DNA from: a virus
Taxonomy: Duplodnaviria; Caudoviricetes
Virus record (IMG/VR): IMGVR_UViG_3300028833_000057
Location: 96,001 to 160,000 of that record
Direction: 5' to 3' (one strand)
DNA: 64,000 nt
In this document: positions 3,354 through 53,086 of the stretch, in pieces
Numbering within the stretch: the stretch's first letter is position 1
Layout: every line of letters starts with the position of its first letter
Program-made: the position numbers and the translations under genes
The notes under the pieces: model-generated
The model's input: the letters and a program-made list of their open reading frames with translations, nothing else
Databases searched by the model: none
What the model was told of the DNA's origin: nothing

Positions 3354-3420
3354 AATAACCTCTTATATTTGAGTTCATTTTATAATATATTATGCAAATT
3401 TAAAAAAAATAAAAGGCATC

Positions 3421-3555: not shown

Positions 3556-3649
3556 GGATACCTCCTTTTTAAGATTTCATAGCTTAATATAAATGAGTAG
3601 ATATAATCTTTACGGAAAAATAAAAGGCATCATAAAGATGCCTTATTTA

Positions 3650-6453: not shown

Positions 6454-6798
6454 TTATAGTTTTAGTTTATCTATATTTTTCAATAATATTTCACAAGCAA
6501 TAGCTCGATTGAAATAAGCTTGCTCTTGTTGGCAATCTTCAAAATGCGATTTAAGAGCTTCTATAACCTTATCCTTAATATTTCTTTGCATAAGCTTTTC
6601 TGACATCAAAGTTTTTAAGGCTAACCTCATCTTATGCATAGGAATATTCGCTATGCAATCTTTCAATTTACCATTATCTACAATTGTTAAAAGAATAGTT
6701 CTAAAAGGCATTGTCTTATAATCCTTGAAAATAGTATCTCTATTTTCTTTAATAATAGGTGCTATGCCTTCACGAAATACATCAATCGGTTTTATCAT
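6454..6798 (-). CDS. Hypothetical early protein
   Basis: AAAGGAG SD, TATATTAA upstream, terminator downstream. Confidence 0.75.
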   Translation of the reverse strand: MIKPIDVFREGIAPIIKENRDTIFKDYKTMPFRTILLTIVDNGKLKDCIANIPMHKMRLALKTLMSEKLMQRNIKDKVIEALKSHFEDCQQEQAYFNRAIACEILLKNIDKLKL

Positions 6799-6865
6799 AT
6801 ATCTCCTTTGTTAATGCACACTAATTAATATAATAACGGATTATAGACATTTTAAGAAAAAAAAA

Positions 6866-7112
6866 ATGGCGCAGGTTATGTGCTTTTCCTACGCCTTGCC
6901 AGTTCCCTCCTCCACTGTTTGCAACCAGCTTTAGAACCTACTTAGTATATGTGCACTTCTACCAAGTGGATGGCTCCATGTTATAGTAATAACTGTCTCC
7001 ACTATTGTGGTTAATTGACTCTCTCCCTTGGGGGGTTCTTCCGAGGTCAAAAGCAGTAGGATTTACCCCCAAGGATAAGGGCTACTCCAAATGTACTATC
7101 TTTCCATCATAT
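6866..7112 (-). ncRNA. Candidate structured ncRNA 2 (~245 nt, pseudoknotted)
   Basis: Promoter motif 7125-7132; helices 6868-6875/6888-6895 (G-U only on the minus strand), 7026-7034/7066-7074, 6969-6973/7104-7108; loop 6881-6887 complementary to 7049-7055; ends in a U-tract. Confidence 0.65.
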
Positions 7113-7137
7113 TACCTTCTCTTTTTAATATATGAAA

Positions 7138-7488
7138 TTATTTCTTTTCTCTACGATTCTTATATTCTTCAATAATCTTTAGTAATTTTTCTTCAGTACT
7201 GAACGGAACTTTTGTAGGATTCAAGCTTCTACAACTATGTTCATCAATCATATCTGGTTCCCATTTATCAAGAATAAAACCGGGGCGACCTGTTTTATAC
7301 CTGATATTTGCTGGAAGATTAAAATCTCCGTCACCTAAATACCACCAACGTTCTTTTAGAAAGAATGATCCTTTATTCCATTCTGCAGTTTCTGCATTTA
7401 TAGTCTTAAGACGAATGTCCTTTCTCTTAAAGCCATTCTGTTTTAAAATTCTGTCTGCGAGCTGCCATGTAAGTCTTTTATTTGCCAT
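7138..7488 (-). CDS. Hypothetical protein
   Basis: 116-aa ORF in operon. Confidence 0.7.
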   Translation of the reverse strand: MANKRLTWQLADRILKQNGFKRKDIRLKTINAETAEWNKGSFFLKERWWYLGDGDFNLPANIRYKTGRPGFILDKWEPDMIDEHSCRSLNPTKVPFSTEEKLLKIIEEYKNRREKK

Positions 7489-7489
7489 T

Positions 7490-7981
7490 TTAGTATCCTA
7501 CCTTTTTTCGTACAAAGGATATAACATCACCAACAGTCCTATCAGAATTCTGACTTGTTATTTCTGCTATATTCACTTCTTCGTCTGTAATTTCAATTTG
7601 GAATTCATCTTCTAATTTCATTACAAGTTCGATTGCATCTAGAGAATCCATTCCTAAACAACTGCCAAGAGTTGTAAGTTCATTTATTTCTCCACCATAA
7701 TCTACAATCTCATGTATAATTCTATACACTTTAGAAGGAATAGTATCATCTTCCTTTTTAGGTGCATCAATTTCTGCATCAAACGTTGTCTCAGGATCAT
7801 CATGAACCCCAAGAGGTTCAATATTCTCACAATCCTTTAATTCAACATTTGGCAAAATATCTATCTGAAAAGTATCTTTAGTCTTCATATGTGTCGCTAC
7901 AATAGAAGATACTTGCTTAAGAAGTACCAAGAGATCTTTCTTATCTATGTCTTCAGTAATCTTTAACAATACCTGATACAT
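7490..7981 (-). CDS. acpP: Acyl carrier protein domain with N-terminal extension
   Basis: LGMDSLDAIELVMKLEDEFQIEITDEE...TVGDVISFV is the canonical ACP phosphopantetheine-attachment region. Confidence 0.85.
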   Translation of the reverse strand: MYQVLLKITEDIDKKDLLVLLKQVSSIVATHMKTKDTFQIDILPNVELKDCENIEPLGVHDDPETTFDAEIDAPKKEDDTIPSKVYRIIHEIVDYGGEINELTTLGSCLGMDSLDAIELVMKLEDEFQIEITDEEVNIAEITSQNSDRTVGDVISFVRKKVGY

Positions 7982-8762: not shown

Positions 8763-8845
8763 ATCTATTCCTTTTGTTAAAGCTATAATTTAATATAATA
8801 AAGTATCTAAAAAAAAAATATCTCTCTAGATGAGAGATATTCATT

Positions 8846-25867: not shown

Positions 25868-26272
25868 AAAAGAAAGTGGCTTGGCTGGCCACTTTAAGAT
25901 ATCCTAACCCAATAGGATCTTTTGCTATGTACATTATTTGTATAAGCAAGTAAAATTCTTATAGCCATCTGGTTCTTACGCCACCAGCGACGCCCATTCC
26001 CCATCAATAATAAAACTCTATTCTCTTATAATGCCTAAAATATTTTATTATTTTAATTACCAAATATATAATAGAAAATTATAATACTATGCAGAAATAG
26101 CTTTCCTAAAGATTTCAAGATGTATTTTTCATATTGGTTCCTCTTATCCTTGTTAGTTGATAAGTTAGTACATAGCCATTACAACAATAAACATTGTAAG
26201 CCTAGCTAATCTTACATCTACCAAATATGCATCATCAAGGCATCATATCTGGCGAATCCCGTAGGGAGTTCT
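25868..26272 (-). ncRNA. Candidate structured ncRNA 4 (~400 nt)
   Basis: Promoter motif 26277-26284, 3' terminator AAAGUGGC/GCCACUUU + U-tract, no long ORF, several 7-9 bp helices. Confidence 0.5.
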
Positions 26273-26346
26273 TTTCTTAATATAAGCATAAAGTTATAAT
26301 GTTTTTTATAGAAAACACACAATTGAAAAAATATATAGGTATTAAT

Positions 26347-34906: not shown

Positions 34907-35017
34907 AATAATGGCTCCTTTGGAATTTATGACATAACGGAATTGTTACATCATAAATTAATATAAAAGTGTATAAAAAAGAAATACAGTATTTGATACT
35001 GTATTTCTTGTTAAAGG

Positions 35018-38196: not shown

Positions 38197-38316
38197 TGGT
38201 AACAACTTTATGTTAGAATCAATATTTAATATAAAATTATAAAGAAAGCCTCCGGGAGCGATCAATGACGATGATTTTGTCTACGAACATTCCATGGCTG
38301 CTCCCATCGGCTCATA

Positions 38317-39640: not shown

Positions 39641-40063
39641 TTATTCTAATGTACACTTTTCAAAGTACTTTGGATATAAGAGATTTAGATATTCTACATC
39701 TGCAGTACTACATTCTATATACTTACTCATAGCGAATTCACGTTTATCAGAATCCCAAGCCATGATATTGGCTTTATACCAATGCAAGGTCTTACCATCT
39801 TCAGATGCTACAAAAACAACCATAGCATCTTTAATAGCGAGAGGGCTTGTATCGATATAGTCTTTTACCTGGTCATATTTAGCAAGAATTTCGCAATGAC
39901 GGTCAATGATACGATATATCTTTAGACCGTGCATATCATATTCTTTACCACTTTGGCCATAGGCTACAGTGGATACTTTATCACCGTGGAATTCAATTAA
40001 GAATAAAGGTTTATTCTCATCTTGAATATTAACATCAATCGTTTTAACTATATCTTCTAACAT
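39641..40063 (-). CDS. Hypothetical protein
   Basis: 140 aa, overlaps the stop of the RNAP gene. Confidence 0.7.
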   Translation of the reverse strand: MLEDIVKTIDVNIQDENKPLFLIEFHGDKVSTVAYGQSGKEYDMHGLKIYRIIDRHCEILAKYDQVKDYIDTSPLAIKDAMVVFVASEDGKTLHWYKANIMAWDSDKREFAMSKYIECSTADVEYLNLLYPKYFEKCTLE

Positions 40064-41976
40064 TCTTCATCACTCGGTTCAAGTTTTAAACCTAGTACTG
40101 TGAAGTATGCCGTTAATAAGTCTTTAATCGTATTAAATCTAGATTTCTCTAGCTTAAGAGGTTCACCTTCCATCTTCGTCAAGAGTTTATGAATCAAATT
40201 CTTTCTATCTTCTTTGTTTGAAGAATGGAAGTCCAACATGTCAAAGACTGCATCTGGGTTCTGACACAGTAACAGGTTCAGTGTTTCTTGTTCGCCCATT
40301 CTAATAGGTGTATTAGAATATGGTGCCATACCTGCTTTATAAATCTTATTAGATTTATTTGGTATCCCCTTCATGTTGATCTGACCACAAGATCTTGCAG
40401 ACATCTTAGATGCTGGTTCATGCTTTAGTCGAAGATAGTAGACATCACCCATGACTAAGGGATTTTCAATATTCTTAAACTTCAATGGCTTAACATCATA
40501 GGCTTCATAAAGCTCCATAAGCCAATCGAAGTTCATATTGTTGAAGAAAGGCGGCTGATGAATTATGAATCCATTTTCATAGAATTCATTTACGAATTGT
40601 TCCTTTTCTTCTTGAGTTTCAAGACCATCATAATACTCTCTAAGATCTGAAACTTGTTCTTCCATATTTACAGATGAATAGAACTCTGTTAAGACTCCCC
40701 ACTTTGTTTCATGGTCATCATCTTTATGCCTGAGTCTTACTTCATCACCTATAAAATTCAATTCCTGTTCGAGAAGAGTAGATAAGTTCATTCGACCTAG
40801 AATCCCCAATGGATTCAAACATGCTTCTGCATATCTACCATCTTCAGTTTGAGGCATTTCCGTATCATCTACAATCTTTGCAACCACACCTTTACCACCA
40901 TACCTATTGGTAATCTTGGATCCTACCAGTGCGGGTTTCTCATAGACTACTGTAAATTTGATAACGATATTATCGAATGCATTTTCAGCTTTCCATTCAA
41001 TATTATCATTTAAGCTATCTTTAGAGCGTCTATAGTAATACGCTGCATCAGATGTAAGCTTACTTCCATCTTCCATTAATTTCTCAATGGTCGAAGTGAG
41101 TATTTTATCATACTCAATCTGTCTAGCTAAATATTTCTTTATCTGCTCAGATGCAGGATCATTAAACTCAGATATATCTTTGTTAGAGTAAATGAATATA
41201 TCCATGACCTTACCTCTGGCGTATATACTTGTATCTGTAGACAACTTACGTCTTAAAGCACTGTTGCTAAGATTTCCAAGCATTGTAGAATTTACTATTC
41301 TACGTCTAGAACATAATACACCATCAACGATTTCTTCGCCTATATCTGGGAATGCCTTATAAGTATCACTATTTCCATATAGATTTATAAGAAGGTCGTT
41401 TGTATTTACAGGTACCATATACTCTGTAACAGCATTATATGCTAATTTCTTTGCAGCTGATTTGGAAATTACCAATGAGTCTTCATATGTTAGACCCTTG
41501 TATGGATAAAATACAGTCTTTAAATTTGTACCTATCATTAAATTTCCATCTTCATCATAACATGTTGCAGCAGCTAGACACATATTTTCGTCAACATGTT
41601 CAATATCTTCAAAATCTTCTGAGTCTACAACATTCTGAAGATATCCATAATTCTCTGTAAGCGGAATGGCTCTTTGTTGATTTATAACACCTATTGTTCC
41701 ATCATCGTTCTTAGTGACTACGGTATAAAATCCTTCAGAACGTCTTATGACTTTTACCGGTTTGAATCCCTGTTTAGTAACCGGAAAGCCCGCACTAATT
41801 TGTCCAATTCTATTCTCAAAATTCGTAAATATTCTAGGAATTTCTGGATTAGATAATATTACACTTTGAACCAAGTGATTCGAGAACATATAGGATCGTC
41901 CTGAATCAGTATGGTTCGTACAAGGCTGTAATAGTTCTTCCGCTAGGAAGTCATGTGTACTTGGTTCGTCAACCAT
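40057..41976 (-). CDS. RNA polymerase beta subunit, C-terminal half (probably non-virion RNAP)
   Basis: R..MFSNHLVQ, YEDS, VGSKITNRYGGKGVV, NPLGILGRMN, LKH...KMSARS, RMGEQE; early motif at 42011-42018. Confidence 0.92.
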   Translation of the reverse strand: MVDEPSTHDFLAEELLQPCTNHTDSGRSYMFSNHLVQSVILSNPEIPRIFTNFENRIGQISAGFPVTKQGFKPVKVIRRSEGFYTVVTKNDDGTIGVINQQRAIPLTENYGYLQNVVDSEDFEDIEHVDENMCLAAATCYDEDGNLMIGTNLKTVFYPYKGLTYEDSLVISKSAAKKLAYNAVTEYMVPVNTNDLLINLYGNSDTYKAFPDIGEEIVDGVLCSRRRIVNSTMLGNLSNSALRRKLSTDTSIYARGKVMDIFIYSNKDISEFNDPASEQIKKYLARQIEYDKILTSTIEKLMEDGSKLTSDAAYYYRRSKDSLNDNIEWKAENAFDNIVIKFTVVYEKPALVGSKITNRYGGKGVVAKIVDDTEMPQTEDGRYAEACLNPLGILGRMNLSTLLEQELNFIGDEVRLRHKDDDHETKWGVLTEFYSSVNMEEQVSDLREYYDGLETQEEKEQFVNEFYENGFIIHQPPFFNNMNFDWLMELYEAYDVKPLKFKNIENPLVMGDVYYLRLKHEPASKMSARSCGQINMKGIPNKSNKIYKAGMAPYSNTPIRMGEQETLNLLLCQNPDAVFDMLDFHSSNKEDRKNLIHKLLTKMEGEPLKLEKSRFNTIKDLLTAYFTVLGLKLEPSDEEC

Positions 41977-45903: not shown

Positions 45904-46069
45904 ATTTAAATTCTATATAGGTTTTTCCTATATAGAATTTTTATTTTAATTTAAATTATTTATAATTATTTATTACAATTTTTAATATAAATATATTATA
46001 ATAAGATAGGAAATTTGTATAAAATTCTTATAAACGAACTAAAAAATGAATTCTAAATAAAGGTAAATC

Positions 46070-48868: not shown

Positions 48869-48910
48869 ATTATAGAAGTACTCAATTATATTAAGTAATG
48901 AGGTACAAAT

Positions 48911-50900: not shown

Positions 50901-51002
50901 AATGACTCCTTGATATTAAACGATACATATCTTAATATAAGGAAGCGTAATGAAAAATTTCGATTATTTTGTATATGAAATCTATTTTAATCTTTATAGA
51001 AA

Positions 51003-51498
51003 AAAGAAGTGGCTAGCTTCTTCCCACATCCTTCTAGGGATGTGTAAGTCCGTTTCTAAGTCTATCTAGTCCTCGCCTATGATGTTGCCACCCGGCTCTT
51101 AGATCCCATCTTTCCATTCCGCAACCTTGGTAGGTACATCGAAACGTGAGTCGCGCTTTCCACGACGGGTTACCCAGTTGCCTACTGGAAAATGAATTTT
51201 AACCTTTGCTATGGGCTACGTATTTTCATGCGTATCGCTATTGTTTCAATGGTCATGATAGACCCTGATGCTATTGCATAGTAGCGCATGCTGTCAGGCT
51301 TACTTTTGTTTTTATGAGTCCTGCTTCATTTTACAGTCTCAACCTAGCTATTCATACATATTTGACGCTATGTATGCGTTTAACGTCAGCTAGGATGCTG
51401 TGCCACCTTAACGGTTTTCAGTGACACTTGACGATATCATAACACGTTTGACCATACCGATCCTCTTAGGAGTTAGTATCTTATACTATGATACACGT
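51003..51498 (-). ncRNA. Candidate large structured ncRNA 3 (~490 nt)
   Basis: ORF-free and GC-enriched; promoter motif 51500-51507; more than 10 helices including a pseudoknot; terminal hairpin + U-tract. Confidence 0.7.
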
Positions 51499-51557
51499 TT
51501 TAATATAATATTATTAAAATGATCTTTACGTTTATTTATATGAAGTTATCCGTCAAA

Positions 51558-51586: not shown

Positions 51587-53086
51587 ATGCAATTAGTATT
51601 ACCTGATGTAAACAAAATCGTTGAGCAAAATAGGCTCCCAGAAGTTACCAATCCAGTTTACCTAGATGGTAGTAATACCCCTACTTCCGATGGCATTTTC
51701 AGTTATGAACTATTTGGTAGGCCAGGTAGTGCCAAACGTAAATTTCAATTTGGTTATATTGATCTTGGAAAGCACTTTATTCAGCCATTAGCTTATGTCC
51801 AAATGGCAAAGTTATTCTCAAAATTACCAGATATTATCAATGGTACTAAGAAATTCACCATTGCTAAGAATGGTTTTCTTATTGAAGATGAGGAAAAAGG
51901 TGGTACTGGTATTGAATGGCTATACGAGAATTTTGATAGAATAAACTTTGATGATCGTGGTACTGCTAGTCGTAAAAAGAAAATAGAGATATTTACAGCA
52001 TATTCTAAGAATGAGATATTTACATCTAAATGGCTGACTATACCTCCATTCTATTTTGACATTAATTTAAGAACTGCAGAAGGTGCTAGATCTATTGATG
52101 AACTTGGATCACTTTATATTAAACTTTTGTCTATGACTAAGATCTTAAAGAATGAAGGTGCATTCTTTACTGCTTATAATATGGAGCATACAATTCAAGA
52201 TACTCTTGTTCAGATCTACAAGCTATTGTCTAGTAAGATCGCTATGAAAACTGGTTTGATCCATAGTTCTATTCTTGGTAAAAATATTGACTATACAGTT
52301 CGTGGAGTTATATCTACACCAATTATCCGTAAAGCAAATTCTTATAGAGACCAGCAAGTTCCATATGGCTATGTAGGCGTTCCATTATATATGGTGGCTA
52401 CAGCTATGTTCCCGTTTATGATTTCAGAACTTGAAAAGTTTATGCAATCAATGAATGCTTATAAAGTATTTATTTCTAATAGTGTTGGACATGAGATTAT
52501 AGAAGATACTATTGATAATATTTCTTCTACAAACTATGAAAAGCTAATTAAGCTGTATGCAAAGTCTCCAGAAAATCGTATGCAAGAATTCAAGGTAGAA
52601 ACACCTGATGGTGCAAATGCCTTAGCTCCATTTGAGAAATATCTAGGTAGACCTTTTACTATTACAGATCTATTATATCTTGCAGCTAGCGAATGTGTTA
52701 AGGATAAATTTGTCTTATTTACTAGATATCCGATTACTGACTATCGTAGTATCTGTCCTTATAAAACTACAATTCTTACAACAGAAGCTACTTGTCATAT
52801 GAGATTACTAGACAGTGATAGATTTGACTTTAAATTCTATCCAGATTTCACAAAGAAACCTATTTCTTGGATTGATAGTATTAGACCTCATTTCAGTTAC
52901 CTTACTGGTTTCGGTGCCGATTTCGATGGTGATACTATGAGCCTTAAATATGTATACTCACAAGAGGCTAACCTTGAACTTGCAAAGAATTTCTACAACC
53001 CGATGATGTTCTTGGATCCAAATGGTGGTGACTCCAGAGGTCTAATTAAAGACTCTATTTTATCACTTTATGAAATGACTAAGTAA
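51587..53086 (+). CDS. RNA polymerase beta' N-terminal piece with catalytic DFDGD (probably virion RNAP)
   Basis: DGIFSYELFG, FGYIDL, ILGKNIDYTVRGVI, TRYP, FGADFDGDTM; late motif 51558-51569. Confidence 0.92.
   Translation: MQLVLPDVNKIVEQNRLPEVTNPVYLDGSNTPTSDGIFSYELFGRPGSAKRKFQFGYIDLGKHFIQPLAYVQMAKLFSKLPDIINGTKKFTIAKNGFLIEDEEKGGTGIEWLYENFDRINFDDRGTASRKKKIEIFTAYSKNEIFTSKWLTIPPFYFDINLRTAEGARSIDELGSLYIKLLSMTKILKNEGAFFTAYNMEHTIQDTLVQIYKLLSSKIAMKTGLIHSSILGKNIDYTVRGVISTPIIRKANSYRDQQVPYGYVGVPLYMVATAMFPFMISELEKFMQSMNAYKVFISNSVGHEIIEDTIDNISSTNYEKLIKLYAKSPENRMQEFKVETPDGANALAPFEKYLGRPFTITDLLYLAASECVKDKFVLFTRYPITDYRSICPYKTTILTTEATCHMRLLDSDRFDFKFYPDFTKKPISWIDSIRPHFSYLTGFGADFDGDTMSLKYVYSQEANLELAKNFYNPMMFLDPNGGDSRGLIKDSILSLYEMTK

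Follow-up and report, generated by a model that had tools for sequence, protein, structure and literature searches.

In the Bacillus jumbo phage AR9, the early promoters have the form AAATATATATTAT-N6-G+1 and are read by the virion RNA polymerase (RNAP) (PMC5312081). In the Pseudomonas jumbo phage 201phi2-1, 11 small RNAs (sRNAs) have been identified by ONT-cappable-seq, three of which are intergenic and whose roles are unknown; one of the sRNAs, sRNA005, has conserved counterparts of common fold in phiKZ, EL, and PA3 (PMC11512511). In T4-type phages, variable early genes are bracketed by repeated terminator and promoter units in the promoter-early stem-loop (PeSL) cassettes, at which recombination swaps modules (PMC2839356). 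Here, we describe RNA2, a segment on the minus strand of a 64,000-nucleotide stretch of DNA (the window; bases 96,001-160,000 of the 267,826-bp IMG/VR record IMGVR_UViG_3300028833_000057) from an uncultured rumen phage with a genome of ~268 kb and a GC content of 33%. RNA2 (7119-6866) is located in a 339-nt gap without open reading frames (ORFs), between ORF 7138-7488 (116 aa) and ORF 6454-6798 (114 aa), and the gap is surrounded by a run of small minus-strand genes. Judged from its sequence features, RNA2 is most likely a genuine non-coding early unit with a promoter and a terminator of its own, accessory and strain-specific, and without a detectable selected fold. We hold this reading with moderate confidence, about evenly balanced between right and wrong.

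The record encodes pieces of a split multisubunit RNAP, a chaperonin, and a DnaB-like helicase, and thus represents a jumbo phage with its own transcription apparatus; the matches to Rpb2 domain 6 (Rpb2_6, E 1.6e-25) and Rpb1 domain 2 (Rpb1_2) are found in the window ORFs 40057-41976 and 51587-53086. As in the AR9/phiKZ-like early units, an AT-rich conserved core is followed 5-6 nt downstream by a conserved G as the start (TATATTAA-N5-G in this phage), and the split multisubunit RNAP genes and the units ending in intrinsic terminators are also shared. The phage differs from AR9 in the addition of an upstream TCGTA at about one third of the sites and in a spacing to the G that is one base shorter; furthermore, RNA2 is devoid of an ORF, in contrast to the protein-encoding early units described to date in AR9. 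The promoter of RNA2 has the architecture of AR9/phiKZ-type early promoters for the virion RNAP, and its early timing and polymerase dependence are predicted on this ground. The sRNAs of 201phi2-1 are, like RNA2, short promoter-to-terminator units without a coding sequence in a jumbo phage, but they have been seen as RNA, whereas RNA2 is known from sequence alone, with no relatives found and no excess folding. Because such small ORF-free units are known in jumbo phages, RNA2 is regarded as an unconserved addition to a known kind. Similarly to the PeSL cassettes, RNA2 lies between two terminator-promoter units, and the homology with a related phage breaks off at the T-run of its terminator; the promoters are, however, of the phage-polymerase type and not of the sigma-70 type, and the cargo is non-coding.

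If transcribed as predicted, RNA2 adds to a growing list of ORF-free early units in giant phages, the roles of which are almost entirely unknown. It also serves as a calibration case, in which a helix-rich and GC-rich gap between a promoter and a terminator looked ornate, yet showed no excess folding or conservation; controls are therefore needed before such gaps are called structured RNAs. Annotation of this uncultured phage group can draw on the bipartite promoter motif and on the precise position of the cassette break at the terminator, both of which also bear on the evolution of the early regions.

Promoter and terminator of RNA2

The promoter of RNA2 that had been proposed at 7125-7132 in an earlier reading of the window, made from the sequence only (hereafter, the sequence-only reading), was borne out by comparison with the other sites in the genome. 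All elements of the phage motif are present, including the G at the predicted +1, and a position weight matrix assigns 18.2 bits to the site (rank 34 among 91 intergenic sites), above the median of the sites preceding genes; for the TATATTA sites inside genes, the median is 3.0 bits, and only 2.3% of them reach the score of the RNA2 promoter. The core with its start, TATATTAA-N5-G, has 74 copies in the genome, 62 of which (84%) fall within the non-coding 8%. Among the 91 intergenic TATATTA sites, A is shared at +7 and +8, and G is found at +13 in 68, against a genomic G content of 17%. About one third of these sites carry CG at -23/-22 as a part of TTCGTA, and the combined pattern CGTA-N17-19-TATATTA-N6-G occurs 17 times in the genome, with 15 occurrences being intergenic. 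The same type of promoter, including the upstream element, is present in the related rumen phage contig L021. All the motif strings that had been listed for RNA2, including those of the helices considered below, were found on the minus strand at their assigned places; the features are compiled in Table 1.

Table 1. Positions of the predicted features of RNA2 and of a recurrent leader hairpin (window coordinates unless otherwise noted)
Feature	Position	Strand	Remarks
Upstream promoter element TCGTA	7152..7156	minus	CG at -23/-22 relative to the initial T of TATATTA; lies within the final codons of the 116-aa ORF
Core promoter box TATATTAA	7125..7132	minus	Full match to the phage motif TCGTA-N18-TATATTAA-N5-G
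Predicted transcription start G	7119	minus	Position +13 relative to the initial T of the box; inferred from the motif
Shine-Dalgarno (SD)-like AAGG and AUG AUG GAA AGA UAG	AAGG 7118-7115; mini-ORF 7110-7096	minus	Present in the sequence
GAUGG/CCAUC helix	7108-7104 / 6973-6969	minus	Ensemble probability ~0
9-bp G/C stem CCUUGGGGG/CCCCCAAGG	7074-7066 / 7034-7026	minus	Perfect inverted repeat; ensemble probability ~0.3
Hairpins CCAC-AAUA-GUGG and GUUAU-UACU-AUAAC	7010-7007 / 7002-6999 and 6993-6989 / 6984-6980	minus	Pair probabilities 0.84-1.0
Hairpin ACUUGGUA/UACUAAGU	6967-6960 / 6947-6940 (extended 6932..6978)	minus	12-nt loop, one G.U pair; pair probabilities >0.9
Hairpin GCUGGUU/AACUGGC	6898..6929	minus	In the centroid structure; 18-nt loop exposes SD-like GGAGGAGGG (6913-6905)
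Intrinsic terminator	6857..6895	minus	8-bp stem GGCGUAGG/CCUGCGCC (6895-6888 / 6875-6868), 12-nt loop AAAAGCACAUAA, A and ten T (6866-6857)
AACAAUNNCGUU-loop leader hairpin	~34925-34950 (promoter 34958-34965); genome 4635, 88093, 88493, 208880; L021 3535-3560		Candidate 5' stem-loop of early mRNAs

At the other end of RNA2, the claimed terminal stem GGCGUAGG/CCUGCGCC is present as part of a strong intrinsic terminator, the hairpin of which has a folding energy of -12.4 kcal/mol, with six G-C pairs and one U.G pair in the 8-bp stem. Its 12-nt loop is atypical, since loops of 3-5 nt are found in 74% of the 104 terminator-like hairpins. A paralogous copy of the terminator module, comprising the hairpin and ~13 nt before it, is located at genome 88524-88551; its loop differs, and in its stem a G-C pair is replaced by A-U in a compensatory manner. 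This paralogue (G000:C1:88516-88620, minus strand, ~7.4 kb before the window start) consists of GGAAGUGGCAUGGACGUAGG-[GGGUUUCAAAA]-CCUACGUC and U8, with an 11-nt loop, and is positioned behind a 67-aa ORF and directly before a bipartite promoter.

RNA2 is preceded by an operon of four genes with a promoter at about 8797 (8790-8797). No terminator was found between this promoter and RNA2, including the stretch between the 116-aa ORF and RNA2; the RNA2 stretch should therefore double as the 3' untranslated region (UTR) of the four-gene operon. The earlier description of RNA2 as a stand-alone early transcript is thus supported by the promoter with its +1 G, the strong terminator 250 nt downstream, and the minus strand as the sense strand, with the refinement that the upstream operon has no terminator of its own before RNA2. 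The contig L018 (JGI 3300024342, 942 nt) corresponds to window 7827-6886, from the interior of the 163-aa gene to the middle of the terminator hairpin, with 100% identity. If its sample is a metatranscriptome, this contig would be direct evidence of a read-through transcript ending at the RNA2 terminator.

Coding potential and folding energy

RNA2 shows no coding signal in any of the measures applied. All six reading frames are closed, with 5-10 stops per frame, and the translated frames have no match in Pfam or PHROG. The codon log-odds of the three sense frames (-0.02, -0.04, and +0.08) are to be compared with 0.385 +/- 0.23 in small genes, and the period-3 power of 0.49 is at the 1st percentile of the small genes (median, 2.22).

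Several coding candidates were considered and rejected. A gene with recoded TAG was suggested by minus frame 2, which has only TAG stops after the first TAA and is open with TAG read as Gln; this frame, however, crosses the terminator and the next promoter and has no family match, and the genome lacks a suppressor tRNA and uses TAG to end 47 of 252 genes. Two small ORFs of 37 and 39 aa have TTG starts without an SD sequence, codon log-odds of 0.12-0.13, and GC contents at the third codon position of 0.47 and 0.35 (0.25 in the phage genes). In window 6931-7488 (minus), the 116-aa ORF, a four-codon minigene, and the 39-aa TTG ORF share one frame, separated by TAA, TAG, and TAA. A decayed gene was nevertheless rejected for the lack of codon bias and periodicity, and the shared frame is regarded as a coincidence, because no coding signal is found downstream of 7138. 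A remnant of an early leader or a ribosome-binding site was also discarded, the best match to 53 predicted leaders being 11 nt (P = 0.27).

The folding energy of RNA2 was compared with those of shuffled sequences. The whole unit has a z-score of -1.7 to -2.2, whereas nucleotides 1-222 without the terminator have a z-score of -0.26 against dinucleotide shuffles, with 0.02 for the 5' half and -1.42 for the 3' body; coding segments of equal length and GC content have a mean z-score of -0.99. When 14 large intergenic gaps were scored, the RNA2 gap had -1.99 on the minus strand, and among the 13 other gaps nine were stronger, one was equal (-1.98), and three were weaker.

Relatives and cassette exchange

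No relative of RNA2 with a diverged sequence was found in the collections searched. In the search with Rfam 15, only the tRNA-Arg passes the gathering threshold in the window, and the best match of RNA2 in a permissive search is RT-17 (15.9 bits versus 40.4; E 5.4). Searches of the genome by blastn, by nhmmer, and with a covariance model of 254 positions detected no paralogue, and no match was obtained in the related fragments G001 and G002 or the loci L020-L025 by DNA and covariance-model searches. Neither blastn of the phage collection nor tblastn and word searches with four neighbouring proteins gave an RNA2 homologue; scans of viral, metagenome, and genome collections with helix patterns and 17-mers returned chance matches only, and a promoter-pattern scan made to list relatives returned one contig. 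Among billions of proteins, the sole copies of the flanking proteins of 116 aa and 163 aa are at least 99% identical, and the only other readable copy of RNA2 is that in L018, which is 100% identical. In the more distant loci L003 (~50% protein identity) and L020/L021 (37%), synteny is lost before RNA2 is reached.

The relative L022 is closer. The product of its 114-aa gene is 91% identical, and the alignment with the window continues at ~90% from the terminator T-run (6866) onward; upstream of this point, the L022 sequence is unrelated to the window, and a ~30-aa ORF with a different terminator occupies the slot. Owing to this homology break at the T-run, RNA2 is considered to be one exchangeable cassette between terminator-promoter units: it is bounded by such units on both sides, and the relative differs exactly there.

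Interpretation of RNA2 and its limits

Based on these features, the following mechanism is the most likely. Transcription of RNA2 would start at G7119 from the virion-polymerase-type early promoter TCGTA-N18-TATATTAA-N5-G and would be stopped by the hairpin and U-run (6895-6857), yielding an RNA of ~255-260 nt. The same sequence would also serve as the 3' UTR of the upstream four-gene operon, in which case the RNA2 terminator would close the operon and insulate the next cassette, whose own promoter is located at 6832-6825. The body of 220 nt is non-coding and shows no selected fold, and its confident predictions are limited to the local hairpins in the 3' half and the exposed SD-like loop GGAGGAGG. 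We read RNA2 as a non-coding 'moron', an accessory cargo swapped by recombination at terminator-promoter units in a mosaic early region.

Several points weigh against this interpretation. The GC content of RNA2 is 45% over 7119-6866, as compared with 33% in the genome and 24-38% in the intergenic gaps of at least 150 nt; such a value is unexpected for neutral cargo and would fit selection or recent foreign origin. The excess of GGAG motifs described below hints at a function at the sequence level, although the motif test was chosen after viewing the sequence. The 9-bp G/C stem (P = 0.048) and the pairing of the loops (p = 0.05) both lie at the edge of significance, which leaves some probability for a real fold. 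Little weight can be given to the lack of RNA2 homologues, as the adjacent protein genes are no less unique and the search of relatives was limited to small fragments. Finally, the transcription, timing, and ends of RNA2 are predictions: statistics computed on the sequence establish the quality of the promoter and terminator, the lack of a coding signal and of excess folding, the distribution as an orphan, and the boundary of the cassette, whereas early transcription, the exact RNA ends, and any activity of RNA2 are inferred.

It is also possible, although unlikely, that RNA2 is not an independent gene, with the TATATTAA box being silent or weak and the stretch being the 3' UTR and terminator of the operon, or a neutral foreign scrap left by cassette recombination. 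The missing terminator between the 116-aa ORF and RNA2, the body without a signature of selection for fold or coding, the exchangeability of the slot between related phages, and the duplication of the terminator module elsewhere in the genome are all consistent with this possibility, and the high GC content would be in keeping with DNA acquired recently from a foreign source, as for several GC-rich genes in the phage. Against it stands the complete promoter match, which surpasses the median of the gene-preceding sites. As estimated from base composition, a full TATATTAA-N5-G would arise at random in a 340-nt gap with a probability of <1%, and 56 of the 69 intergenic TATATTA-N6-G sites are located within 120 nt of a same-strand gene start, with one more just upstream of the tRNA-Arg. 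We retain an independently promoted unit as the preferred reading.

GGAG motifs as a possible decoy

GGAG occurs six times in RNA2, with 1.9 expected (P = 0.002), and UGGAG four times, with 0.45 expected (0/500 shuffles). At least six GGAG motifs are found in only 0.057% of the 254-nt windows of the genome, and these fall into two regions, RNA2 being the sole non-coding one. The other region (genome 54332-54778, minus, outside the window) is coding and has up to eight GGAG motifs per 254 nt. In RNA2, four of the six motifs are predicted to be paired, and the GGAGGAGG run is located in the open 18-nt loop at 6898..6929, the bases of which are mostly unpaired (probabilities, 0.96-1.0). As for repeats or iterons at the DNA level, RNA2 contains only a 10-nt direct repeat, AA[C/T]AGTGGAG, in two copies 87 nt apart. 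Because the GGAG test was selected with the sequence already in view, the excess is taken as a lead for a decoy function, not as evidence.

RNA2 could act through its sequence as such a decoy, i.e., an abundant early RNA presenting SD-like GGAG motifs, above all the exposed GGAGGAGG (6913-6905). Candidate targets would be the 30S subunits, an RNA bearing an anti-SD sequence, or a GGA/GGAG-binding protein such as a CsrA-type regulator. We consider this unlikely as well. The enrichment of both motifs, the singular position of RNA2 among the non-coding regions, and the predicted unpaired state of the GGAGGAGG loop, which is not followed by a start codon, are in line with a decoy; on the other hand, the motif was picked post hoc from ~256 tetramers that could have been tested, the majority of the motifs (4/6) are predicted to be paired, and no complementarity to the phage genome beyond chance was detected (all E >= 0.2). 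If RNA2 is active at all, a decoy rich in purines and GGAG seems to us more probable than a machine built on a pseudoknot. An elaborate form of this idea, which we regard as very unlikely, would be a young lineage-specific regulatory RNA, produced in bulk by the virion polymerase early in infection. In this form, 30S subunits, putative phage small RNAs bearing ACCUCCUU, or a host GGA-binding translational regulator would be titrated by a cluster of six GGAG SD mimics, with one GGAGGAGG placed in an open loop, and the large terminator loop would kiss the 5' domain to keep the decoy loops open.

Predicted fold and proposed loop-loop pairing

In the sequence-only reading, RNA2 was modeled as a structured RNA, in which the GAUGG/CCAUC helix encloses three hairpins and the AAAAGCA of the terminator loop (6887-6881) kisses the complementary UGCUUUU (7055-7049); such a kiss would lock the 5' and 3' domains together. 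The UGCUUUU is held in the 31-nt loop of the 9-bp G/C stem (7026..7074), and a stem as long as this one arises in 4.8% of the shuffles (P = 0.048). The following CCAC/GUGG and GUUAU/AUAAC hairpins (6980..7010) are short and not statistically remarkable. In the minimum free energy (MFE) structure, the ACUUGGUA/UACUAAGU hairpin is lengthened by UGGAGCC/GGUUCUA, in competition with GAUGG/CCAUC, and the MFE and centroid structures agree with each other. The ensemble probability of the GAUGG/CCAUC helix is close to zero, since CCAUC is taken into this extension of the neighbouring hairpin. All segments of the multi-helix architecture are present as described, but the body folds no better than shuffles, and the closing helix is hardly populated in the ensemble.

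The loop-loop pairing was evaluated in the same way. The complementarity over 7 nt exists, with p = 0.05 when only Watson-Crick pairs are counted and p = 0.13 when G.U pairs are allowed, and it is thus indistinguishable from chance. Moreover, it is the smallest among the roughly uniform p-values of 15 terminators with large loops, as a uniform null predicts. In the phage phi29, the pRNA adjoins packaging genes, is conserved, and pairs between molecules. RNA2 resembles pRNA and other kissing RNAs as a phage RNA with an early promoter and two loops able to pair via 7 nt, but differs in that its complementarity is at chance level and its context is an early region of ORFans.

Altogether, the structured RNA model appears quite unlikely. 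The complementary segments all exist, and the claim that the G.U pairs fit only the minus strand was confirmed for two pairs, in agreement with the better folding of this strand (-74.3 kcal/mol, z -2.24) than of the plus strand (-57.6 kcal/mol, z +0.45). The enriched GC content and the terminator loop, unusually large for the phage, also agree with the model, as does the paralogous terminator at genome 88.5 kb, whose different loop has its own 6-nt upstream complement. These observations are outweighed by the z-scores of the body and the 5' half, the ~0 probability of the closing helix, and the chance-level loop pairing, which is the minimum of 15 tests and has a counterpart of p = 0.33 in the paralogue. 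In addition, UGCUUUU can alternatively pair locally (CUUUUG/CGGAAG), no homologue was found for a covariation analysis, and Rfam gave no match. No structural likeness to RNA1, with which an alignment had been suggested, was found; the covariance model R1 matches only RNA2 itself in the whole genome, and RNA1 is unrelated. We adhere to the reading in which RNA2 has no detectable selected fold.

Putative minigene at the 5' end

The bar minigenes of phage lambda consist of an SD sequence, an AUG codon, very few sense codons, and a stop codon, and the toxicity of bar depends on peptidyl-tRNA drop-off in hosts limited in Pth. The 5' end of RNA2 has the same layout close to the promoter (an SD sequence, a start codon, one to four sense codons, and a stop codon), and the mini-ORF MMER* that had been pointed out at 7110-7096 is present with its AAGG. 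It is not statistically unusual, however, as mini-ORFs of <30 codons begin within 15 nt after 13 of 69 predicted starts (19%), and AGA is the commonest Arg codon of the phage (50% of the Arg codons), making an end in AGA the default. RNA2 accordingly differs from bar in that its mini-ORF is no commoner than chance, and a drop-off effect is putative here. The AUG of the mini-ORF is at +10, with the same spacing as in the 196-aa gene at genome 79710, and two real phage genes have AUG at +10 or +11 of their predicted starts; AAGGUAAU precedes a 122-aa ORF. The 5' end of RNA2 does look like a usable initiation region, with nothing that singles out the mini-ORF.

That the translated minigene is the active part of RNA2, either by bar-type release of peptidyl-tRNA-Arg(UCU) or as a leader peptide, is highly improbable: the AAGG at +2 to +5 and the AUG at +10 are arranged as in real short-leader genes of the phage (GAGGAUAUUAUG before the 196-aa ORF and AAGGUAAUUUAUG before the 122-aa ORF), and a tRNA-Arg(UCU) is carried by the phage, but comparable mini-ORFs are found at so many other starts, the terminal AGA is the default, and a minigene does not need the 240 further nucleotides.

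Neighbouring gene and other sites of the promoter motif

In the early operon upstream of RNA2, the 163-aa protein (window 7490-7981, minus) has an acyl-carrier-protein (PP-binding) domain in the C-terminal half, while its N-terminal 80 residues are unique; the sole copies are 99-100% identical.

The bipartite promoter-like motif TTCGTA(A/T)AATTTCT...N...TATATTAA-N5-G recurs in the window, e.g., at 3578-3591, 6825-6832, 8790-8797, and 50932-50939, and elsewhere in the genome. Its core is nearly always directed at a gene start, and the upstream half defines a subclass of ~20-25 sites that is conserved in L021 (3480-3515). Thirteen full-motif promoters have no ORF of at least 50 aa within 120 nt downstream. 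They include window 3376-3389, 3578-3591, 26271-26284, 45976-45989, and 51494-51507 (minus), window 48887-48900 (plus), and genome 62069, 66756, 76044, 206018, and 252419; the promoter at 38220-38233, which also belongs to this set, drives the tRNA-Arg. Others head the gaps that had been named RNA3 and RNA4 in the sequence-only reading, as well as gaps of high GC content at genome 66.4 kb and 76 kb. Such gaps may be further non-coding units; none of them is similar to RNA2 by the covariance model.

Many of the predicted early leaders open with a hairpin, the loop of which is AACAAUNNCGUU (e.g., GAUGUAACAAUUCCGUUAUGUC). The hairpin recurs in the contig of the related phage and is a candidate for a 5' stem-loop conserved among the early mRNAs. 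At genome 79662 (minus) and 79710 (plus), outside the window, two divergent genes are driven by overlapping back-to-back TATATTA boxes. Both have a very short leader: counted from the predicted starts, the AUG is at +11 and +10, respectively, and the SD sequence begins at +1 or +2.

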